DNA from: Eledone cirrhosa
Taxonomy: Eukaryota
Assembly (NCBI GenBank): GCA_964016885.1
Contig: OZ024740.1
Location: forward strand, 201,872,001 to 201,936,000
Direction: 5' to 3'
Length of the DNA: 64,000 nucleotides
The translations under genes were made by a program, and so were the position numbers. Every line of letters begins with the position of its first letter. Position 1 is the stretch's first letter. Under the pieces are notes generated by a model, which saw only the letters and a list, made by a program, of their open reading frames with translations, did not search any database and had not been told where the DNA came from. Of this stretch, positions 193 through 61,206 are shown one piece after another.

Positions 193-1934
<1,742 letters not shown>

Positions 1935-2065
1935 GTGAGGTTTTTTTTACAAAATGAAAAATAACCGAGGTGTCCTACACGAGTGGAAGTATAAAGAAAA
2001 AGGGATGAAATCAAAAATGCAACTGAAGTCTTATTTTTTTTAAAAATATATATATTTATTTGGTT

Positions 2066-2103
2066 CCTTTACCGGTTTCGCAGTTCTTCTGCTTTTCAAA
2101 AGG
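2066..2103 (-). ncRNA. Minimal type-I hammerhead ribozyme motif (mirror copy of 2176-2213)
   Basis: Exact reverse complement of 2176-2213. Confidence 0.75.
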
Positions 2104-2175
2104 TGAGTTGAGATGGAGGGTCTGTGGTTTTTCTCACGGATGTGAGAAAAACCACAGACCCTCCATCTCAACTCA

Positions 2176-2213
2176 CCTTTTGAAAAGCAGAAGAACTGCG
2201 AAACCGGTAAAGG
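2176..2213 (+). ncRNA. Minimal type-I hammerhead ribozyme motif, U3-A8 core variant
   Basis: CCTT-TTGAAAA-GCAG aagaa CTGC-GAAA-CCGG-TA-AAGG: helix I CCTT/AAGG, core UUGAAAA, helix II GCAG/CTGC, GAAA, palindromic ACCGGT helix III, GUA cleavage triplet. Confidence 0.75.
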
Positions 2214-2290
2214 AACCAAATAAATATATATATTTTTTTTAAAAATAAGCCTCCAGTTGCATTTTCGATTTCATCACTTTTTCTTTATAC

Positions 2291-12171: not shown

Positions 12172-13084
12172 GTAATTTTGCCAGGCATGGTGGGTGAAAT
12201 ATTTAGGGACCAGAAGTAATTTTGCCAGGCATGGTGGGTGAAATATTTAGGGAACAGAAGTAATTTTGCCAGACACGGTGGGTGAAATATTTAGGGGCCA
12301 GAAGTAATTTTGCCAGGCATGGTGGGTGAAATATTTAGGGAACAGAAGTAATTTTGCCAGGCATGGTGGGTGACATATTTAGGGAACAGAAGTAATTTTG
12401 CCAGGCACGGTGGGTGAAATATTTAGGGAACAGAAGTAATTTTGCCAGACACGGTGGGTGAAATATTTAGGGAACAGAAGTAATTTTGCCAGACACGGTG
12501 GGTGAAATATTTAGGGACCAGAAGTAATTTTGCCAGGCATGGTGGGTGAAATATTTAGGGAACAGAAGTAATTTTGCCAGACACGGTGGGTGAAATATTT
12601 AGGGGCCAGAAGTAATTTTGCCAGGCATGGTGGGTGAAATATTTAGGGACCAGAAGTAATTTTGCCAGACACGGTGGGTGAAATATTTAGGGAACAGAAG
12701 TAATTTTGCCAGACACGGTGGGTGAAATATTTAGGAACAGAAGTAATTTTGCCAGGCACAGTGGGTGAAATATTTAAGAACCAGAAGTAATTTTGCCAGG
12801 CATGGTGGGTGAAATATTTAGGGACCAGAAGTAATTTTGCCAGGCACGGTGGGTGAAATATTTAGGAACAGAAGTAATTTTGCCAGGCACAGTGGGTGAT
12901 ATATTTAGGGACCAGAAGTAATTTTGCCAGGCACGGTGGGTGATATATTTAGGGACCAGAAGTAATTTTGCCAGACACAGTGAGCAAAATATTTAGGGAC
13001 CAGAAGTAATTTTGCCAGGCACGGTGGGTGAAATATTTAGGAACCAGAAGTAATTTTGCCAGGCATGGTGGGTGAAATGTTTAG
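12172..13084. repeat. Minisatellite, 44-bp unit x ~21
   Basis: Unit GTAATTTTGCCAGGCATGGTGGGTGAAATATTTAGGGACCAGAA, head-to-tail with no spacers and few variant positions. Confidence 0.97.
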
Positions 13085-15431: not shown

Positions 15432-15743
15432 TTTACCTGCACATCCACCCATGTTATCTATGCCCTCCGGTGTTCCTTTTGCGGGTCTTTATGTATCGGA
15501 CAAACGGCACGCCGTATGGCGAACCGTTTTGCCGAGCATTTGAGAGACATACGACTCGGTTTGGATACTCCTGTCACCCGTCATTTCTGTTCTCCTGGTC
15601 ATTCTTCCCTACATGTTTCAGTCCTCGGTGTCCTTTCACATCATCGATCACAGGCCTCGTGCACCAGAACTGAACAAAGTCTGATTCACCGCCTTGGGTC
15701 CTATTCCCCTCTTGGACTCAACTCACCTCCTCAATTTCTCTAA
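15432..15743 (+). pseudogene. PLE GIY-YIG endonuclease domain (5'-truncated; YIG changed to CIG)
   Basis: VIY...CxxC...(Y>C)IGQT.R...RFxEH and terminal P.GLN motifs. Confidence 0.85.
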
Positions 15744-16141
15744 TACCCCGTCCATTATCACACCCCTAGATTCCTATCGCTTTCTCTTGATCATTAGCAG
15801 CTTCTCTTACAACTAATACAGGCCGACTATATATGCTCACTCCACTTTTCCCTTCACTGCTCTGTATACACACATACACACTCTTATATTAACATACTTT
15901 TGCTCATAGCTTCGTACTTACATGCATACACACTCTTTTACTCACATATACCCACACATTTCTTCTTAGCTTCGTACGGACGTATAATAACACACACACA
16001 CACACACACACATGCACAAAACGCCAGCACCAACAGTTTTGCAAGAGATGTCAACATGAATGGACCTGTTATTTTTATCTAAAGACATTTTTTCCAATTC
16101 CAACCTGCCAGTCCCCTCAATCTATCTTATTTCTCATTCTT

Positions 16142-16177
16142 TCTTCTGATGAAGGACTAGCATCCGAAACGTTAAGA
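16142..16177 (+). ncRNA. Minimal type-I hammerhead ribozyme motif of PLE pseudo-LTR
   Basis: TCTT-CTGATGA-a-GGA ctagca TCC-GAAA-CG-TT-AAGA: canonical CUGANGA/GAAA core, helix I TCTT/AAGA, palindromic AACGTT in place of helix III. Confidence 0.8.
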
Positions 16178-16423
16178 CCTTCTTCCTGCTATTTCAAGCG
16201 TTAACCTAATATATCCCTTCCATATACTGTACCGATTGTGTTGTTATTTGTTTACCTTTTACATACATATATATCTGTGTATACATGTTTAGACATATAC
16301 ACATGTATACACATCCAACACCCATGCAAGCATGAAAAGCTGGTGTAAAATGGTGACGACGATACATGTATATATACACACGCGTATGTATATATACATA
16401 TATATATATACAGCAATGTTACA

Positions 16424-23995: not shown

Positions 23996-24195
23996 NNNNN
24001 NNNNNNNNNNNNNNNNNNNNNNNNNNNNNNNNNNNNNNNNNNNNNNNNNNNNNNNNNNNNNNNNNNNNNNNNNNNNNNNNNNNNNNNNNNNNNNNNNNNN
24101 NNNNNNNNNNNNNNNNNNNNNNNNNNNNNNNNNNNNNNNNNNNNNNNNNNNNNNNNNNNNNNNNNNNNNNNNNNNNNNNNNNNNNNNNNNNNNNN
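23996..24195. other. Assembly gap (200 N)
   Basis: Run of N. Confidence 1.
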
Positions 24196-30765: not shown

Positions 30766-32184
30766 ATCGACCAGGTCATGAAGGTCACGGAAAAAGTAAT
30801 AGCGCAACTAATCAGAGAGAGAATTGATCTAGATGAAATGCAGTTCGGGTTTGTGTCAGGCAAAAGCACCACAGACGCTCTTTTCATAGTACGACAACTA
30901 CAGGAGAAGTACCTAGCTAAAGGTAAACCCCTCTACTTAGCTTTTGTCGACCTGGAGAAAGCCTTCGACAGAGTCCCCCGCTCCATTATCTGGTGGGCTC
31001 TTAGAAAACTAGGCGTTGACGAATGGCTTGTGAGGGCTATACAAGCCATGTATAAAGAAACAGTCAGCAAGGTTAGAATTAACAACGAATATAGTGAAGA
31101 GTTTAGCGTAAAAGTTGGCGTCCATCAGGGCTCTGTTCTCAGCCCCCTACTATTTATTATTGCCCTTCAGGCTATAACAGAGGAGTTCAAGACAGGCTGC
31201 CCATGGGAACTCCTATACGCAGACGACCTGACACTCATAGCGGAATCAATGGCCGAGCTAGAGAAGAAATTCCAAACATGGAAGCTCGGCCTAGAGTCAA
31301 AAGGACTTAAAATTAACCTGGCTAAGACCAAAGTTCTAGTTTGTAGGAAAGAAAACAAGGCGGCGGTCCCTTCTGGGAAATGGTCGTGCTCGGTATGTAG
31401 GAAAGGCGTAGGTAGAAACTCCATCTTATGTCCTAAATGCAAAGTATGGGTGCATAAAAGATGTAGTGGGATCACAGGTAAGCTAACTAAGAACATAGAC
31501 TTTACATGTGGCCGGTGTTCTGGTGCAATAAGTAGCAGCAAGTGCCCACAAAATACTAGCTCTTTCAATTGCGCAGAGGGTTCTATAGAAATAGTGGACA
31601 GCTTCCGTTACCTGGGCGATAAAATCAGCAGTGGGGGAGGGTGCTCTGAAAGTACTGTAGCTAGAGTCAGAACTGGTTGGAAAAAGTTCAGAGAGCTTAT
31701 ACCACTATTAGCTGCTAAAGGGTTCTCCCTAAAAATGAAAGGCAGGTTGTACGATGCCTGCATACGAACAGCAATGTTGCATGGTAGTGAGACCTGGGCA
31801 TTGTGTGCAGAGGATATACGCAGACTAGAGAGGAACGAAGCTTGCATGCTCCGCTGGATGTGTAACAGTAATATACGTGAACGGCAAAGCATAAACGAAC
31901 TAAGGAAAAAATTAGAGATAAGAGGGATCAGATGTTGTTTACTCGAGAGAAGGCTGCGTTGGTATGGACACGTGATGCGCATGAAAGTCGATAGCTGTAT
32001 TACAAAGTGCAGGGCAATAAAGATAGACGGTAGCCACGGAATAGGCAGACCTAGAAAAACATGGGATGAGCTGATAAACTCCGACCTCACACACTTACAC
32101 CTCTCCAAGACAATGTCACTGGACCGTGACCTTTGGCGGTACTCAGTAACAGAGAAGACCCGCCTTGCCAGTAGGCATCTCTAA
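30766..32184 (+). CDS. RTE LINE reverse transcriptase, partial (no start codon), with internal C4HC3 finger
   Basis: [72 protein letters not shown]; no stops over 472 codons. Confidence 0.9.
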   Translation: MDQVMKVTEKVIAQLIRERIDLDEMQFGFVSGKSTTDALFIVRQLQEKYLAKGKPLYLAFVDLEKAFDRVPRSIIWWALRKLGVDEWLVRAIQAMYKETVSKVRINNEYSEEFSVKVGVHQGSVLSPLLFIIALQAITEEFKTGCPWELLYADDLTLIAESMAELEKKFQTWKLGLESKGLKINLAKTKVLVCRKENKAAVPSGKWSCSVCRKGVGRNSILCPKCKVWVHKRCSGITGKLTKNIDFTCGRCSGAISSSKCPQNTSSFNCAEGSIEIVDSFRYLGDKISSGGGCSESTVARVRTGWKKFRELIPLLAAKGFSLKMKGRLYDACIRTAMLHGSETWALCAEDIRRLERNEACMLRWMCNSNIRERQSINELRKKLEIRGIRCCLLERRLRWYGHVMRMKVDSCITKCRAIKIDGSHGIGRPRKTWDELINSDLTHLHLSKTMSLDRDLWRYSVTEKTRLASRHL

Positions 32185-32542
32185 CAAACTACACCCCGTC
32201 CCGCCACCACCCCCACCCCATCCACACCACCCCGTTCTATGTAAAGTTATGTTGGTGCCGCGCCATCCAGGCCGAAACAAATGAGATCGTGTAGGTGTCA
32301 CGACAAAAAAACACACAGTCCACGCTGTAATGTGGCCGTGTAGGCAACACGGTAAAAACCTCCCAGACCCACACTGTAAATGTGGTTGGTGTTAGGAAGG
32401 GCATCCAACTGTATAAAAACTGCCAGACAGTCCTATGCGAGCAAGACAATCACTCTTGCCTCAAGTGGGACTACCCCCGTCCAAACCCATGCAAGCGTGG
32501 AACACGGACGTTAAACGTTGATGATGATGATGATGATGATGA
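30766..32542 (+). mobile_element. 5'-truncated, young RTE-clade LINE
   Basis: Uninterrupted RT ORF, ~335-bp 3' UTR and (GAT)n tail; acacacatactcat on both sides (possible TSD, ambiguous inside the repeat). Confidence 0.95.
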
Positions 32543-34848: not shown

Positions 34849-35036
34849 ACGAAGGAGGTGTGGTAAGGGACCAGATGTACCATAACGCACCAGAGTACTC
34901 AATACTTAGGGTAGTAGAGTGGGTAATAGGAAAATTTATAACTCCGACGGCAGAGCTCAAGCCGTTTCGACGGCTATTTCTGGACTGAAATAGCCGTCGA
35001 AACAGCTTGAGCTCTGCCGCCGGGGTTATACATTTT

Positions 35037-35041
<5 letters not shown>
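34849..35041 (-). mobile_element. Short fold-back element in (TA)n (family B, copy 1)
   Basis: 55-bp arms 34926-34980 and 34987-35041 (4 mismatches), loop TGGACT, plus a 77-bp unpaired extension homologous to 58548-58624; (TA)n on both sides; strand assigned by analogy only. Confidence 0.75.
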
Positions 35042-35101
<60 letters not shown>

Positions 35102-35229
35102 AGAGAGAGATCGAGAGTGAATTTGGGGGTAACTACAATTAAAAAGGTACTCAATACATTAGTAGAGTGTAAACATCTTTAATATAGATCCCTGATTATT
35201 TCATACGAATGGAGCATTTCTCTATGAAA

Positions 35230-35766: not shown

Positions 35767-38719
35767 AATGTGTATATATATATATATAAGCAATTTTAAC
35801 GCTCGTAACTACAATAAACTAACTCATTTTATTTTGTAAACAAATAATCTATATTCTGCTATTGTATTGAATGATCATCCAGTTAACGTATGGATGTTTC
35901 TATGTATCATTATACATAGAAACATCTACAACAATACATTTCTAAACATAGAAATTTGAAATCTCAGTTGATTAATGTATACGTAGATATGCGCGTGTGA
36001 GTGTCTAACTATAGCTGCCCTTTGCTATTGAATGTCTTGGTAATATTTACCATGCTTTCGCTTAAGGGTTTTAGGCACCCATGGTAGTAGTAATCATATA
36101 AGGACCGCTTTCTTCCCTTGATCCAGCGGAACATCCAGCTGGAAGGAGAAAGGGCTGCACTAGCACTGGATTGGTACTTTCTTTATCGACCCCGACAGGA
36201 TCTATGGCAAAATGGACCTCGGGTTTGAACTCAGAGCGACGGAATGAATACCCCAGTGCATGATTGTCAATTCGCCACCCTGATACATAGATAAAAGGTT
36301 TCAACTTGAGCGTGCGGTCTACTTGGTCATTTACACCAACGTGCGGTCTACTTGCACATTTACAGTGTAGTGTGCAGTCTTACCTAAATTACAATCACTT
36401 AATCCTAACGTTTAGAGTACGGTTAATGCGGTAGACCGCTAAAAACGATCTACTATCACAGAACAATGCGGCTGCCATGAAATATTTAACAAAACCACTA
36501 TGTAGTAATGAAGTGCAGTGTGACAAACTGATTTAATGTTTATGTTGGACCTCCGTCGGTTCCGACGACGAGTGATCCAACGGAACAGCCTGATCGTGAA
36601 ATTAACGTGCAAGTCTACTTTCACGTTAATTTCCATACACGTCTACTCTTAATGTAACTCTCATGGAGATTCAGATTAACACAGTATGACAGGGATGGCC
36701 CTTTGAATCCCAAATAAAACTTATTTTCCCCAGCTGAGTGGACTGGAGCAACGTGGAATAAAGTGTCTTAAGGACACAATGCACTGTCCAGTCTCGTAAT
36801 CGAACTCAAGACTTTACAATCGTGAATCGAACACCTTACCACCAGCCCGTTTTGTTCAGTAATTTTAATTTACATTTCTAACATAATGCAATAACTGACA
36901 AAGGGGAAATTTTGAAATGTCCCTAATTCACACACAGTCTCTTTTTACATTCACACACCATCTTTTTTTCAGTCTCATTTCACACACACATACCGTCTTT
37001 CATTTACGCATACAATCTTTCTCACACACATTCATATGAAACTGTCGAAAATATTGCTGATCCAATGTGTGTGTAAACTAGTGATTTCGTTCGATGTATC
37101 GATATAGACAGTGTCAGATTAAACCTGAGGACCTAAGATGTATAAAGCTTGGAGTCCCTCTACAGCAGAAGGCTTCACAAGAAAATGGAAACATGCCTTG
37201 TCATTATTTTGAAGCCCTAAGCCGTGATTATTTTGCTTAATGGTTAATCCAGGATTGGATATAGATGACATATCTATAGAGACAATACATTTAATATCTA
37301 TTTACTTTTGTGGATGCAACATAGCCAAATGGTTTAAGAAATTCACTTTGCAATCACTATTGTCCAGGGTTCGGTCCCACATCTACCAAAGTCACGAGTG
37401 AATCTATGCTTTGTGAGTGAAATTGGATAGGTGGAAACTGTTCGGAATTAACAAGGGCCAACTTAATTTAAACAGGGTCATGCTGAATCAATCACCCACC
37501 CCTGAGAATTATATTACGGGTACATATGTGTATGGAATGATCAACTGCTTGCACGTTAATTTCATACGCAGGCCGTTCCATTTATCAAACAACTGGAACA
37601 CTCCTAAACGATATATCGATATACAGCCGAATTATTGCTCGACTAGAACTCAGTTGACATTTAAAGAGAGTGCCCTTAAGTAAGACGGTTTGGTGGTAAC
37701 AAGCTGGTAGTTAGTAAGATGAGTAATTTAACAGCTAATGTGACAAAATCTCTCACCATAACAAGGGACCAATGATGAGGAATTATTTTAGCCAATCATT
37801 TCTATTTATTTATATTTTATTTCTAGTTACTGACTGCTGAAGAGATGGGAGTTCATTAAAATACACACACACACACACACACTATACACATAAGTATGTA
37901 TGTGTGTGTATATAGATTTATATACATATATATATGCACTCATTATTTAACGCCTGTTCTCCTAACTAGCGTATATATATGGACCCATAACTCCTGTTGG
38001 AGTCATTGGAGTACCAGGATGATATGCGGCGTTTTGTGGGGCGTTTCAAACCTGGCAGGGCTCATCTCTTCTCCAGGTCTGAACACAGCCTATTCTAGAA
38101 AAGGAGAGCAACTGAAAAAGAGATACAGAGGAAGAATCGACCGTAGTACTGGATAGATACTTTTTTTTATATCGACCTCGAAGAGATGAAAAGCAAAGTT
38201 GACTTTAGCAGTATTAGAACTCTGAACACAAAGAGCTTGAACAAATAGTGCTAAGCATTCTTGGCCAATTCGCTGCCCTATGGCAAATATATGTATATTT
38301 ACAACGTTCCGCTCGGTTCGGGAAATGAACTCAACAACCTAACCACTAGGCTGTGCACCTTCACCGACTAAAAGAATATATCATCGTTATCATCTTACAT
38401 CTAATTTCCACATTTACATGAGTTAGACAGGTTGTCATGTTTTGAGGCTAGACATGTCAGATGACTGTGCTTGCTTATTATGTTCCATTTTGGCATAGTT
38501 TCTACAGCTGGATGCCAACCACTTCTCAGTGTGTACTGAGTATTTTTTATCATGGCACCAGCACTTTACAAGTGTGGACTGTATGCATTTTATCATAGCA
38601 CCAGCACTGCCACTTTACAAAGTAGGGTGGGTGCATTTTATTGGGGCACCAGCACTACAGTTTTTCCACACTATGGCATTAATATCATTAGCTCGTCTGG
38701 GAAAGCAGTGACGGGAATA

Positions 38720-49505: not shown

Positions 49506-51810
49506 ATCATCATCATCATCATTTTACGTCCACTTTTCCCTGCTTGCAAGGGTGGGACGGGTCTTATTCAGCACAGCATCTCTCCACTCGTCACGGTCCC
49601 TCGTCATCTCCACCGTGAGCTTCAATGATCTGAGGTCTGTTCTCACCACCTCCGCCCATGTTTTTCGTGGTCTACCTCTACCACGTCTTCCTTCAACTGG
49701 CATTTCCTGGCACTTCTTCACCCATCGGTCATCCTCCATGCGCATCACATGTCCATACCACCTCAGTCTCCTCTCCCGTACACTACATTCTATCCCTCTC
49801 AGACACAGTTTCTCTCTCAACACATTTATGCTGGGTCGTTCACGCACATTTACACTGCACATCCAACGGAGCATGTTTGCATCATTTCTCTCCAGCCGTC
49901 GCATATCCTCTGCGGTTGCTGCCCATGTCTCACTACCATGCAGATCGCGCTCCTCACACAGGCATCATACAACCAGCCTTTCGTACGCAGGGAGAAACCC
50001 TTCTTCGTCAACAGAGGAAGCAGCTCCCTAAACTTCTTCCAACCCGTCCTTATTCTAGATACTATGGCCTCGGAACACCCTCCTCCCATGCTAATCTGAT
50101 CTCCTAGTTACCGGAAGCTATCCACCACTTCTATAGCGCCCTTTCGCATTTGAAAAATGTGTCTATCAGTGCGACTTCTACTGTCTAATTTCCCTGTACA
50201 TCTACTGCATACATATTTCTCCCTACCTGTTAGTTTGCCTGCTATCCCACTACATCTCTTGTGTACCCAGGACCTACATTGTGTGCATTTTATAGAATTT
50301 ATGCCAGTTCCTTTTCTGCATATCGAACATGGCCATTTCCCTGACGGAATCAGGGTTTTGTCCTCTTTTCTACTCATCAACACTTTTGTCTTAGCTAGAT
50401 TTACTCTCAGTCCTCTTGCTTCCAACTGCTGTTTCCATAGCCGGAATTTATTCTCTAGCTCCTCTACTGATTCTGCTATAAGAGCCAGATCGTCAGCATA
50501 GAGAAGTTCCCATGGACAGCCAGTCTTAAACTCCTCTGTTATGGCTTGGAGGACTATAATGAACAAGAGCGGGCTGAGGACCGAACCCTGATGTACTCCT
50601 ACTTGTATCTGGAATTCCTCACTAAACTCCATTCCTACCCTGACTTTACTGAGAGTACCTCTGTACAAAGTTTGCACTGTCCTCACAAGCCATTCCTCAA
50701 CACCTAGCTTCCTTAGGGACCACCAGATGACAGATCGGGGTACCCTATCAAAGGCCTTCTCTAGGTCAACAAAGGCTAAGTATAGTGGCTTATTCTTCTC
50801 TAAGAACCTCTCTTGCATTTGTCTCACCAAGAAGAGGGCATCTGTTGTACTCTTCCCAGGCACAAAACCAAACTGCATCTCATCTAGTTTGACCCTTTCT
50901 CTAATTAGTTGTGCTAAAATCCTTTCTGCCACTTTCATAACCTGATCTATCAGTTTTATACCCCTATAATTGCTCCTCTCCAAAGCATCCCCTTTACCTT
51001 TGTAGCAATTTATGAGAATACTGCTGCACCAGTCTATAGGTATGACACCACCATATATAGCCTGATTGATGATGCGTGCAACCAGTTTAGTGCCTACGTC
51101 CCCTGATGCCTTCAGCATCTCAGCAACTATTCCCGATGGTCCGGCCGCCTTACCATTTTTCATTTCCCTAATCGCCTCTTGGACCCTATATTCGTCAATC
51201 TCAATAGCTGGTCCCTCTGTCGGATCTACCAAGGGTAATTTCTCTCTCTCCCATTCGTTCTCCACATTCATCAGTCTCTCATAATGACATTTCCAGGCCT
51301 CCTTTTTCTGGTCATTCGTGACACTAAGTACACCGGCATCATCCCGGACACATTTATCTCCAACAACATCCTGATTTGCATTGACACACTGCCTTGCAAT
51401 GTGGAACACCGCACGCCTCTGATCTTCCCGTCGCAGAACATTGGCAAACCTCCTACTCTCTGCCTCCCTGCGTGCTAAGTACACCTGACGTCTAGCTTCT
51501 CTCTTAGTGGCTGTATATTCTTCCCTACTCCCACCCTTTTTCCAAGCCTTCCATGCTAGTCTTTTGTCTCTAATAGCCTTATCTACTGTACTGTTCCACC
51601 ACCAGGTCACTCTCTGTCTGGTTGGAGCTCTGCTCCAGCCACAGGTTTCATCAGTAGCCTGCAGCAAGTTGTCACGTAAGAACTTCCAGTTATCTATGTC
51701 ATACGTCTCTAAATCGTCTTCTTTTTCGTCATATACATCTTGAAGGGCTTTCCTAAATTTGTATTTTAGTGAAAGGTCTTTTAGCTTCCAGACCTTTCTT
51801 CTCCACCTTA
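49506..51810 (-). mobile_element. 5'-truncated RTE LINE (short-3'UTR subfamily), disrupted near the C-terminus
   Basis: ORF 50108-51667 with WWNS, KNGKAAGPSGI, NYRGIKL, DLEKAFD, YADD and Cys finger; continued by 49850-50089 and 49524-49904 after a stop and frameshift; (GAT)n tail at 49506-49522. Confidence 0.95.
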
Positions 51811-52324
51811 CCTAAATACAAAGTAAAAACCTACTACAGTCAGTAGGCACCTCTATCAAAACACACCCCCGTCCCACCACCTCCACCCCACCCACACCGC
51901 CCCTATCAATGTAAAGTTATGTTGGTCCCACAACATCCAGGCCGAAACAAATGAGATCGTGTAGGTGTCACGACAAAAAACACACAGTCCACGCTGTAAA
52001 TGTGGCAGTGTAGGCAACACGGTAAAAACCTCCCAGCCCCACACTGTAAATGTGGTTGGTGTTAGGAAGGGCATCCAGCTGTAGAAAACCCGCCAGACAG
52101 TCCACGCTGTAATGTGGCCGTGTAGGCAACACGGTAAAAACCTCCCAGCCCCACACTGTAAATGTGGTTGGTGTTAGGAAGGGCATCCAACTGTAGAAAA
52201 CCCGCCAGACAGTCCTATGCGAGCAAGACAACCACTCTTGCCTCAAGTGGGAAAACCCCCGTCCAAACCCATGCAAGCGTGGAACACGGACGTTAAACCT
52301 GATGATGATGATGATGATGATGAT
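51811..52324 (+). mobile_element. RTE 3' UTR copy with internal 113-bp tandem duplication and (GAT)n tail
   Basis: Matches 32170-32542; 51984-52096 is repeated at 52097-52208. Confidence 0.9.
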
Positions 52325-53622: not shown

Positions 53623-56600
53623 ATCATCATCATCACCGTTTTACGTCCGTTCTTCCACGCTAACATGGGTTAGACGGGTTGTCCTGTTGTGGGCAGTGTC
53701 TGGTCGGCTGACCATGCCTTGCTCATACAGGAACTGATTTGGCTTGATTTCTACAGCTGGATGCCCTTCCTAACACCAACCTCATTTACAGTGAGTGCTG
53801 GGTGCTTTTTCGTGGCGCCTACACGTCCACTTTACATTGTGGGCTGGGTGCTTTTTTGCCGTGGCACCTTCACGACCACCTTGCGGTGTGTGTGTGGGGG
53901 GGGGGGGGCATATTGTCTATATGCTTCAGCTTGTACCCATGGGAGGTCGGGTACTCTGTACTACTGCGTGACGCCAGAGGTCACGGTCGCGTGTCATTGC
54001 CTTTGAGAGGTGTAATTGGGTAAGGTCGGCTTTTGTCACCTCATCCCAGGTCATCTTGGGTTTCCCCACTCCGCGGTCTCCATCGACTTCTAGTGCTCTG
54101 CACCTTTTTATGCAGCTGTCATCCTTCATACGCATCACATGTCCATACCAGCGCAACCGCCTCTCCTGCACACAGCATTTGATTCCTCTTATGCTCAGTC
54201 TCTCTCTCAATTTATTTATGCGTTGTCGTTCACGTATATTACTGTTACACATCCATCGGAGTATGCAGGCTTCGTTTCTCTCTAATCTACGTAAGTCTTC
54301 CACCTTCAGCGCCCAGGTCTCACTACCATGCAACATCGCTGTTCGGATACACGCATCATACAGTCTGCCTTTCATTCTGAGGGAGAAGCCTTTTGCAGCT
54401 AGCATGGTAGTAGTTCCCTAAACTTCTTCCATCCCGTTCTTACCCTAGTTATTGTACTTTCTGAACACCCACTTCCGCTGCTAATTCGGTCACCTAGGTA
54501 GCAGAAGCTGTCTACTGTTTCTACAGAGCCCTCCAAGAGAGAGATTGGTGGTACTTGTTTCCTGTGGCTGTTTGCTGCTTGCTGTCCCAGCACAGCTGCT
54601 GCATGTGAAGCCTACATTCTTATTTAAGCTTCCTAAAATCCCGCTACATCTCTTGCGTACCCATTGTTTGCATTTGGGGCAGAGAATGGAGTTCCTACCT
54701 ACACCTTTCCTACATACTGAGCAAGGCCATTTCCCTGAGGGATCTGGGTTCTGTTTTCTCGTCTACTTACAAGGACCTTAGTCTTTGTCATGTTGACTTT
54801 GAGACCCTTTCTTTCTAGTACCTGCTTCCAAGTTTGGAATTTATTCTGTAGTTCTACCATAGATTCAGCTATAAGTGCGAGGTCATCAGCATACAGGAGT
54901 TCCCATGGGCATCCGGTCTTAAACTCCTCCGTTATTGCCTGCAGGACTATGATGAACAGGAGGGGGCTAAGAACAGAGCCCTGGTGGACCCCAACCTGTA
55001 CGCTAAATTCCTCGCTATACTCATTGCTAATCCTAACTTTGCTGACTGCTCCCCTATACATGGCTTGTATCGCTTTCACAAGCCATTCATCTACTCCTAG
55101 TTTTCTAAGAGCCCACCAGATTACAGCACGTGGAACTCTGTCAAAGGCTTTCTCAAGGTCAACAAATGCCAAGTAGAGTGGCTTACTTTTAGCTAGATAC
55201 TTTTCCTGTTACAAACCCAAATTGCATCTCGTCTATTTTCACCCGGTCCCTAATCAACTGTGTGCTATAACTCTTTCTGTTACTTTCATGACCTGGTCCA
55301 TCAACTTTATACCTCTATAGTTTCCTCTATCTAGTGCATCACCTTTACCTTTGTAGCAATTGACAATGATGCTACTGCACCAATCTTTTGGTATGACACC
55401 ACCTAGTATTACCTGGTTAACAATACGTGTGGTTATAGTGTGACCTACAGACCCAATGGACCGGTTGCCTTCCCCATCTTCATATCTTTGATTGCCTTAC
55501 TTACTACGTTGCTGCTGACTTGTACTGCTGGCCCCTCTATAGGGTCTACTTGGAGTAGGGTCTCTTCTTCCCATGCATTCTCCTCATTTAGTAATCTATC
55601 ATAATGACTCTTCCATGCATCTTTCTTCTCAGCACTTGTGAGGGCAAGCTCACCTTTATCATTCCGGATACACTTCTCTCCAATGACATCACAACTCTCT
55701 CTGACACACTACCTCGCAATCTTGAACACCTCCTGTTTCTGGTCCTCACGTTGCAAAACATGCTTGAATTTTCTATCCTCTGCTTCCCTCCGAGCTAAGT
55801 ATACTTGTCGCCTAGCTTCCCTCTTGGTCTCTATGTAATGTACCCTGCTCCCCCCATTCTTCCATTCTTTCCATGCCTGTCTCTTGGCCTTAACTGCCTC
55901 ATCTACCTTATTGTTCCACCACCAAGTCACTCTCTTCCTGCTTGAGGTCTTACTCCAGCCACAGACCTCATCCGTCGCCTCTAGTAAATTATTTTTTAGG
56001 AACTCCCAGTTCTCTTCTACATTGAATGTCTCTATCTGTTCTTCTTTACTGTTGTAGGCGTAAGAGTAAAATATCTTTAAATCTGTTACTGGTTGAGGGG
56101 TCTTTCAGCTTCCAGATCTTTCTTCTCCAGGTTCGTCTAGTTCTGACCGTGAGGTCGCTGACAACTAAGTTATGTTGGGATGTACATTCCTCACTAGGGA
56201 AGGCTTTTGTGTTTACGACCGTCCATCTGTCACGTCCTCTGATGAGGATAGAATCTATCTGACTGGAGTGCTCCCCTGATCTATAGGTGATCAGGTGGTT
56301 GTTGGGTTTTTTAAAGTTTGTGTTACATATCGACATGTCATTGGCGTCGCAGAATTCTAGAAGTCTGAATCCTTCCTCATTTCTTGTGCCAACCCCATGG
56401 CCTCCATGTACTCTATTGAAGCCGTCGCAGTGTTGACCTACGTGTCCGTTAAAATCTCCTGCGATGATTAAGAAGTCATTGTCGTCTGTTAGAGCAGTAG
56501 TGTGCATTAGGGACTCGTAAAACCTATCCTTAAGTTCGTCTGGCAGCCCCGATTGGGGTGCGTAAGCTGATATTATTGTGGTAATTGTTTTATTCAGGAC

Positions 56601-56924
56601 TAGTCTGAGTTTAATTATTCTTGCATTTACCCTGTACACTGAGATTACTTTATCTACCCACTTGTCAGCTAGTAGTATACCTACACCACCCATCCCATCG
56701 TCACTTTCCACCCAGAAAAATTTGTAGCACCGACTTTTTCCTACAAGGACTCTAGCAGACTCTCCTCTCCATCTAGTCTCTTGCACACAGCATACATCAA
56801 TTTCCTTTCACTCTAGCATTTCTACGATTTCTCCTGCTCTTCCTTTCATTGAGCCTACATTGATGGTACCAACTCGGAGTTTTTGGGAATTTGTCAACAC
56901 TCGTAGGGAAGGGTCTCTGGATTG
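53623..56924 (-). mobile_element. Near full-length RTE LINE (APE endonuclease + RT), inactivated by frameshifts
   Basis: [41 protein letters not shown] (EN; 56046-56786); [29 protein letters not shown] across ORF fragments 55709-55930, 54699-55172, 54399-54593 and 53926-54405. Confidence 0.95.
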
Positions 56925-58547: not shown

Positions 58548-58719
58548 ACGAAGGAAATGTGGTAAGGAACCAGGTGGACCATAACGCACCAAAGTACTCA
58601 ATACTTAGGGTAGTAGAGTGGGTAATAGGAACGAGTAGGACCCCGACGGCTGAGCTCAAGACTAGTCCAGAATTAGCCGTCGAAACGGCTTAAGCTCAGC
58701 CGTCGGGGTCCTACTCGTT

Positions 58720-58724
<5 letters not shown>
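58548..58724 (-). mobile_element. Short fold-back element in (TA)n (family B, copy 2)
   Basis: 36-bp arms 58625-58660 and 58689-58724 (1 mismatch), 28-nt loop; same left terminus ACGAAGGA and same right terminus TTCCTAT as 34849-35041. Confidence 0.75.
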
Positions 58725-58980: not shown

Positions 58981-59194
58981 AAAGGTAAACAGAAATAACA
59001 ACACAATCGGTACAGTATATGGAAGGAATATATTAGGTTAACGCTTGAAATAGCAGGAAGAGAGTCTTAACGTTTCGGACGCTACTCCTTCATCAGAAGA
59101 AAGAATGAGAAATAAGATAGATTGAGGGGACGGGCGGGTTGGAATTGGAAAAAATGTCTTTGGATAAAAATAACAGGTACATTCATGTGGGCAT
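58981..59194 (-). mobile_element. Solo PLE pseudo-LTR fragment
   Basis: Reverse complement closely matches 16050-16262. Confidence 0.85.
59065..59100 (-). ncRNA. Minimal type-I hammerhead ribozyme motif
   Basis: Minus strand TCTT-CTGATGA-a-GGA gtagcg TCC-GAAA-CG-TT-AAGA. Confidence 0.8.
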
Positions 59195-59354
59195 CGTTAG
59201 TGTTTGACGTCTGCTTTTTCGATTCTGGCATGGGTTGGACGCGACAGCACCTATTGAGGAAATGTTCTATAACTGGGATACACATCGTACAACTACATAC
59301 ATCAACCTTTAACGCCCATTTGGTCTGTTTACACGCACACTAATATATATATAA

Positions 59355-60689: not shown

Positions 60690-60748
<59 letters not shown>

Positions 60749-61070
60749 TTTTATAGTTCTGGTATGTCAAATTAATACCATGGAACAACCACTGTATCAT
60801 AGACACCCTATATAATTCCAGGGGTACTTAGTACCTGTGGGGATATTAATCTCCTTTTATATTTCTCCGTTATGTAGAGAACAAATCCGTTGTTTTATTT
60901 AGCTGCTATTTTTAGTGGCGTGATAGACAACACGTCTATGTTTACTTCTTACTTCTGCTAAGGGCTGGTTCATGCATAGGTCAAGTTTACGGCCTCATTC
61001 GATCCTGTGCTAGCTGTCAGGTGGCAATATATTTTGCCGTTCCTGGGACTTTTGTCCTAGGTAAGGAAAA

Positions 61071-61152
61071 TGCTCTCTGATGATCCGAACATTTCCATTG
61101 GAGGTCCCTAGGATCTCCAATCTTTTGTAAGGTGAAACCGTCGGTAAAAGCA
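61071..61152 (+). ncRNA. Candidate type-I hammerhead ribozyme with extended helix II
   Basis: TGCTCT-CTGATGA-tCC...ATTGGAG gtcc cta ggat CTCCAAT...GGt-GAAA-CCG t CGG-TA-AAAGCA; helix I 5/6 bp; lies in a unique island bounded by (TA)n. Confidence 0.6.
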
Positions 61153-61165
61153 AATGGAATAGGTA

Positions 61166-61206
<41 letters not shown>

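Follow-up and report, generated by a model that had tools for sequence, protein, structure and literature searches.

The closest described systems to the hairpin elements reported here are the EN+ Penelope-like retrotransposons (PLEs), whose insertions often carry an inverted 5'-truncated copy and, on one end, a tail of 30-40 bp (PMC3846280, PMC8557442). The way in which PLEs make these inverted-plus-tail insertions is described as open in these papers, self-priming being proposed in PMC3846280 and resolution by the endonuclease in PMC8557442. The PLEs of the Hydra clade insert in (TA)n, and one of them is known from Octopus (PMC8557442). An anole PLE, PAc Poseidon of Anolis, nicks AT-rich DNA, starts reverse transcription at two internal sites that bound its tail and extends both target strands in vitro (PMC11167929). 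In LINE-1, twin priming leads to an internally primed inverted segment and a small deletion at the joint (PMC2837659).

The window analysed here is a stretch of 64,000 nucleotides from Eledone cirrhosa (contig OZ024740.1, positions 201,872,001 to 201,936,000 of the forward strand), about one third of which is simple repeat and which contains LINE RT fragments and SINEs. Two copies, A and B, of a hairpin family are present in it. The family likely derives from a Hydra-clade Penelope-like retrotransposon as a non-autonomous element, and each of the two hairpins likely arose at insertion, when two cDNAs were joined head to head. We consider a PLE origin of the family to be very probable. The features are as follows.

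34849 to 35041, minus strand: copy A, the whole insertion, made of a 77-nt tail, a long arm and an inverted short arm, with (TA)n runs on both sides
34849 to 34925, minus strand: one-sided tail of copy A, bounded by two fixed ends that abut (TA)n, as marked by loose ends of reads and contigs
34895 to 34920, minus strand: bulged tail hairpin of copy A, RCTC-TRC-loop-GYA-TW-GAG-YAC, common to Hydra-clade PLE tails when compared by eye with File S7 of PMC8557442
34926 to 34986, minus strand: long arm of copy A, terminating at the near-fixed head of the family (34983-34986)
34946 to 34968, minus strand: 3' half of a type I hammerhead-like motif in copy A (GAAA, 5-bp stem III, GUC), without the CUGANGA half
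34987 to 35041, plus strand: inverted short arm of copy A, which falls 6 nt short of the head at one end and terminates at the inner start site beside (TA)n at the other
58548 to 58724, minus strand: copy B, with the layout of A but of the other subfamily
58594 to 58619, minus strand: bulged tail hairpin of copy B, identical to that of A
58625 to 58663, minus strand: left arm of copy B, which stops 22-25 nt short of the head and is followed by 3 nt (ACT)
58664 to 58724, plus strand: inverted arm of copy B, complete from the head to the inner start site
58682 to 58704: GAAA, 6-bp stem III and GUC in the inverted arm of copy B
1928 to 2290, minus strand: element C, of a separate family with the layout of A and B (61-nt tail, 149-bp arms, 4-nt loop)
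2176 to 2213, plus strand, and 2066 to 2103, minus strand: whole minimal hammerhead of element C, with a U3-A8 type core, one per arm (variant in PMC4209133)
35115 to 35205, minus strand: element E, a more distant relative about 75 bp from A, with approximate limits and a bulged tail hairpin like that of A and B at 35147-35168

The RNA sense of the long arm of A is predicted to be the minus strand, with 34849 as the predicted outer RT start and 34926 as the predicted inner one.

The two hairpins had been described in the initial annotation, all of whose counts of coordinates, arm mismatches and loops hold. The arms of A (34926-34980 and 34987-35041) pair over 55 bp with 4 mismatches and a 6-nt loop, and those of B (58625-58660 and 58689-58724) over 36 bp with 1 mismatch and 28 nt between them; the fold z-scores are -17.5 and -13.8, respectively, and none of 200 shuffles folds equally well. 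The unpaired 77-nt extensions, correctly reported as shared by A and B, are identical at 71 of 77 positions, and A, B and C are each flanked by (TA)n runs. The right arm of B shares its last base (34986) with the long arm of A, and the 28-nt 'loop' of B exists because its left arm stops 22-25 nt early, not because the centre is freely placed. The long-arm plus inverted-arm layout claimed for 1928-2290 is confirmed: the arms of C (1989-2137 and 2142-2290) pair over 149 bp with 7 mismatches around a 4-nt loop and leave the 61-nt extension unpaired. All 7 of these mismatches (5 events) are located within the outer 53 bp of the 149 and the inner 96 bp are perfect, a pattern which, read post hoc, suggests either later homogenisation or two different templates. 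In element E, the loop of the tail hairpin is shorter than in A; the element possibly has its own short inverted piece and is located just before a SINE.

These hairpins have the head-to-head inverted copy, the one-ended tail, the microsatellite target and the junction palindrome of EN+ PLE insertions with inverted pLTR and tail (PMC3846280, PMC8557442). An inverted 5'-truncated copy adjoins a direct copy, and the one-sided tail has two alternative 3' ends, at 34849-52 and 34926. Since this layout is the one published for PLEs, it was counted for a PLE mechanism. The differences are the lack of an ORF, a unit below 200 bp, a tail of 77 nt (61 in C) that exceeds the published 30-40, and a near-fixed head instead of the random truncation of PLEs. 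The longest open frame in the long arm of A and B is at most 46 aa, so that they hold no PLE RT/GIY-YIG ORF. Because they have neither an ORF nor a whole hammerhead, the family is not filed as a PLE proper, and we describe it as working like a PLE-mobilised non-autonomous element. Insertion in (TA)n, a feature of the Hydra clade, is present but also found in Naiads, and is thus not diagnostic. Members of the clade are recognised by RT phylogeny, a DKT motif and an EN without CCHH, and no ORF is linked to the A/B family.

The tail is the feature that relates the family to a particular clade. In A and B, the predicted sense strand folds, 6 nt past the inner end, into a hairpin of 4 bp, a UU bulge and 4 bp. 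By eye, its pattern, CTC-TRC-loop-GYA-TW-GAG-YAC, also occurs in File S7 of PMC8557442 at the 3' ends of a coral element, Hydra-2_Amil, and a sea cucumber element, Hydra-2_Ajap, with compensatory changes: A-U to G-C in the outer pair and TAC/GTA to TGC/GCA in the inner stem. The 3' end of Hydra-1_Crog matches loosely, which brings the motif to 3 of the 6 Hydra-clade consensuses of that file (2 exact, 1 loose), a shared 3' signal being our own criterion. The motif is absent from the other three, Hydra-1_Obim included; these have less sequence after the hammerhead, which is expected if there are two alternative 3' ends. In the window, three matches (A, B and E) were found versus none in 100 shuffles, and a looser structural pattern recovers the same three sites versus a mean of 0.035 in 200 shuffles. 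Of the 24 positions of the hairpin, 8 are unpaired, and these contain five of the six variants listed for it; the sixth variant preserves pairing through a wobble (p about 0.02-0.03). The motif, which was defined after seeing the sequences and compared by eye against Hydra-clade ends alone, is what ties the family, as judged from sequence, to the Hydra clade.

With the Hydra-clade PLEs of PMC8557442 (Hydra-2_Amil, Hydra-2_Ajap, Hydra-1_Crog and Hydra-1_Obim; Files S1, S2 and S7), A and B share the (TA)n target, the bulged tail hairpin just beyond a TAT/TATAT site, and GAAA with a real stem III and an NUH upstream; they differ by being non-coding, by the loss of the hammerhead 5' core and stem II, and by a longer stem III with a 7-9 nt loop. 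The autonomous partner of the family was not identified: the 3' end of Hydra-1_Obim gives no sequence match by eye, and two 11-nt motifs of the elements are absent from the PLE consensus supplement, in which line breaks can mask matches. The PLE-type origin proposed in the initial annotation is supported by the Hydra-clade tail motif and the two fixed ends abutting (TA)n.

The initial annotation also pointed to a hammerhead 3' half. In the long arm of A and the right arm of B, GAAAC is indeed followed by a 5-6 bp stem and GUC, but such a half motif arises in about 1% of 20,000 arm shuffles and about 8 times per shuffled window, and was rejected as stand-alone proof because of this chance rate per arm. 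A and B contain the 3' half alone, with no 5' core, and this half could not self-cleave in cis. A permuted hammerhead of type II or III was discarded, there being no CUGANGA core with a stem II on either strand, and a scan of the window at the Rfam gathering threshold gave 0 matches. The type I hammerhead of the pLTR of EN+ PLEs is thus missing in A and B; C has a whole minimal hammerhead, which points towards the C tail and whose U3-A8 core variant has been described for schistosome PLEs (PMC4209133).

The abundance of the family was assessed by aligning reads and contigs to the tail and long arm of A (34849-34986) at 80% likeness in four of 11 listed runs: X1 and X9, which are samples from different studies, X1 being possibly the one that the window comes from, and X4 and X8, which are other organisms. 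In X1, 16,609 of 16.5 million contigs align, the summed contig depth not being read as copy number, and in X9 (RAD reads under the same species label) 20,851 of 12.5 million reads; X4 and X8 give 338 and 4 contigs. A and B belong to a very high-copy family. In X4, over 34870-34935, related families keep the tail core and the GGC-loop-GC stem with a different loop. The (TA)n abuts two fixed places: the outer tail end, listed at 34852 (36 contigs, 990 reads), and the inner end at 34926 (143 contigs, 1,302 reads), two counts that cannot be compared, the reference itself ending at the outer end. The inner end with a B-type stem, listed at 34944, accounts for a further 108 contigs and 2,938 reads. 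The stem depth is 0.83-0.89 of the tail depth and not double, a rough estimate from short-read data, which lose hairpins; it was counted for the two-cDNA model proposed below. A loose end behind 34976 in X9 (974 reads) has a near-palindromic, A/T-rich consensus with an agreement of 0.41, and is perhaps a subfamily with a different, longer head.

The same reads bear on the claim that the inverted arm is re-templated in each copy, which rested on stems that differ between copies and match within them. Within the copies, 33 and 35 of the first 36 stem positions match between arms, versus 28 between copies, and at 6 stem sites both A arms differ from both B arms. This observation is correct but a weak argument for re-templating: the stem differences are alleles of high-copy subfamilies and not private to one copy, with B-type and third-type stems common (912 and 1,907 reads) and 34933C and 34940G carried by 61% and 86% of X9 reads, and for this reason two copies cannot show re-templating per copy. 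At 34940, both arms of A carry a minority allele (14-21%), as expected from one template but also from a small subfamily. The two left-arm mismatches of A oppose alleles at 91-98% of the depth and are ordinary decay; ongoing homogenisation of the arms of A was rejected on the same grounds, all 4 mismatches having persisted.

The joints between the two arms are more informative about the mechanism. All 15 listed joints, of 24, change strand, and 10 of the 15 recur in both X1 and X9, so that they are considered genomic. The turn-around point, which had been described as differing between copies, does vary on the side of the tail-bearing arm, but the other side is near-fixed: it lies at 34983-34986, with no letters between, in 13 of the 15. 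The varying side is at 34980-34983 in 3 of the 15, which are full hairpins (26 X1 contigs, 42 X9 reads), and at 34904-34935 in the other 12, that is -22 to +9 from 34926 (15 contigs, 323 reads). In these 12, the arm with the tail ends close to the start of the short arm, which leaves an inversion with hardly any hairpin and with a small gap or overlap. The clustering near 34926 has a p of 0.007-0.025 with the observed window and of 0.10-0.24, not significant, with a symmetric one, the 9 unlisted joints being counted as misses; 5 of the 12 fall at 34933-34935, the point at which the alignment of other subfamilies to A ends. Fifteen contigs share the joint found in A, 34980/34986, a recurrence that inheritance explains equally well. 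The listed joints amount to about 11% of the X9 depth at the head (280 reads), and longer copies may therefore exist unseen. A possible head-to-tail joint is represented by 2 reads only.

L1 twin priming yields inversions that have a small internal deletion, and the joints were counted for this mechanism. The model we propose, which we regard as moderately probable, combines two RT starts 77 nt apart on opposite target strands, the cDNAs of which are joined head to head. A PLE RT/GIY-YIG protein supplied in trans would bind the tail hairpin of an RNA of about 140 nt and nick both strands of the (TA)n. One target strand would serve as primer at the outer end, 34849, and the opposite strand at the inner end, 34926. 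Of the two cDNAs, the one started at the inner end would extend to the head of the RNA, and the outer one would either stop near the inner primer, giving an inversion with little or no hairpin, or continue towards the head, giving copies such as A and B; the two cDNAs would then be joined over 0-3 shared bases. As a guess, the head could be set in the transcript of a palindromic copy already in the genome, by a cut in the loop or by arrest of the RT.

The two start sites bounding the tail, the AT-rich target and the in vitro extension of both target strands are shared with PAc Poseidon, which differs in being autonomous and of another clade; PMC11167929 has no discussion of inverted insertions, the word 'inverted' being used there only for a blocking nucleotide. 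LINE-1 twin and dual priming shares with our model an inverted segment primed internally from the second strand and a small deletion at the joint (PMC2837659), but internal priming is opportunistic in LINE-1, whereas the inner site of the A/B family is fixed and full hairpins are common.

The main rival to twin priming also starts from a PLE-derived element. Its palindrome would have been made once, or copied from palindromic masters, with a zero-length centre, and the loops and one-sided joints would be later deletions anchored at this centre. The centre of B reads well as a perfect palindrome with a 22-nt deletion of the left arm, and the differences between A and B are subfamily-wide; nevertheless, the end of the short arm at a PLE-type alternative 3' end is then left without explanation. 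Asymmetric central deletions are a known fate of long perfect palindromes (PMC8701086), but the palindromes of that review are kilobases long and these are about 60 bp. The commonest X1 joints, 34980/86, 34982/84 and 34983/84 (26 of 41 contigs), are those expected from trimming at the centre, whereas the 12 listed classes near the inner start remove 45-82 nt, and none of the 15 listed joints falls at 34936-34979 or below 34904, although B itself is there. The clustering of C's mismatch events in its outer part may hint, again post hoc, at later homogenisation; the 4 arm mismatches of A persist uncorrected. We regard this explanation as rather unlikely.

The self-priming put forward in the initial annotation seems improbable; in the form considered here, one cDNA would fold back to act as its own primer, for example on the long stem II of a parental hammerhead, so that the centre would be fixed, the CUGANGA half lost and the arm recopied each time. 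It has a precedent in the self-priming proposed for PLE inverted junctions (PMC3846280) and would account for the fact that the 5' core is always lost. Cephalopod Naiads have cores whose halves are 35-50 nt apart, another such core is present at 61077-61138 in the window, and the A/T-rich loose end behind 34976 may be a longer stem; yet no parent with a 5' core, and no longer copy with an ORF, was seen among the reads, which are mapped up to 34986 only. In B and in 12 of the 15 listed joints, the short arm holds sequence that is missing from the long arm, so that copying from the long arm could account for it only with an additional deletion. The idea that the inverted arm is generated at insertion is supported by the many different joints, but simple fold-back self-priming fails for these 12.

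Helitrons and Helentrons have subterminal inverted repeats and a short 3' hairpin, Replitrons have short direct terminal repeats, and the partner of such elements is an HUH Rep; by eye, neither arrangement of repeats is seen in A and B. A DNA-based element (a MITE of a DDE transposon, or a Helitron or Replitron derivative) or a fold-back artefact of library or assembly, for which the hairpin shape, small size, TA targets and very high copy number would speak, is very improbable in view of outer ends that are not inverted repeats of each other (77 nt unpaired), one arm variably truncated with many different joints where a MITE has a fixed structure, the PLE tail motif, and the 10 of 15 listed joints that recur in two samples from different studies.

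Twin priming of a PLE dependant can be extended to a broader reading, which we advance tentatively. The family may be a self-perpetuating palindromic parasite of Hydra-clade PLEs, of about 140 nt, with a tail hairpin conserved by covariation in corals, sea cucumbers and this genome, two RT starts and a half hammerhead, in which the loop of an existing palindromic copy would set the end of the template and each insertion would rebuild the palindrome by twin priming. If so, the family would be a retroelement in the guise of a MITE, and the inverted repeats of PLEs would generally originate from two-strand priming rather than from self-priming.

Short non-coding PLE dependants are already known as non-LTR retrozymes and non-autonomous Chlamys, e.g. 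MRC1. These form head-to-tail tandems, the retrozymes with whole hammerheads, whereas A and B are single, head-to-head units with a half hammerhead. The layout of the family is known; the family is set apart by its near-fixed head and missing hammerhead core, by its very high abundance, by a covarying tail hairpin of Hydra type and by joints resembling those of twin priming. In the parts of the literature consulted, no paper was found that applies twin priming to PLE inverted repeats, nor any account of the family, including in the available portions of PMC13282606, PMC8967140 and bioRxiv 2026.07.22.740005; subscription journals, Repbase or the O. vulgaris repeat library may already hold it. 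The O. vulgaris repeat paper and its single supplement gave no family-level match, and pattern scans of metagenome and viral contigs gave 0 loci. With very many copies, two fixed ends and a near-fixed head, the models are separable by counting joints in a long-read assembly, and thousands of natural copies would then allow a poorly understood step of PLE insertion to be tested. The RT/EN proteins of the Hydra clade may recognise the covarying tail hairpin; as a candidate signal, it could help to classify orphan repeats which annotation pipelines probably label as MITEs or unknown.

Other elements of the window are of interest beside this family. At 15432-16260 (plus strand), a PLE 3' end comprises a GIY-YIG-like frame (Atlas 0.95 to GIY-YIG clusters, Pfam negative), then a minimal hammerhead at 16146, then a TA/CA-rich run at which it ends, which confirms for this genome that the ORF is followed by the hammerhead and then by the 3' end. 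A truncated copy of the same PLE family, 215 bp long and 94% identical, is present at 58981-59195 (minus strand) beside (GT)n, about 260 bp from copy B; it has a hammerhead at 59096 and no inverted arm. The 428-bp element bounded by (TA)n at 60745-61172 (plus strand) has CTGATGA at 61077 and GAAAC at 61134 with a 50-nt branched stem between them, and resembles the 'half core' hammerheads of cephalopod Naiads. Young-looking LINE copies are inserted in TA-rich microsatellite at 30770-32520, 49510-52320 and 53630-56920; we take them to be RTE-like and to end in (GAT)n, and the last two have RVT_1 by Pfam, plus PHD in one. An assembly gap of 200 N is located within a microsatellite tract at 23996-24195, and a tandem array with a unit of about 44 bp and about 20 copies, counted by eye, occupies 12190-13080. 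Finally, short imperfect palindromes of 34 and 36 bp lie outside TA runs at 35893-35926 and 36598-36633.
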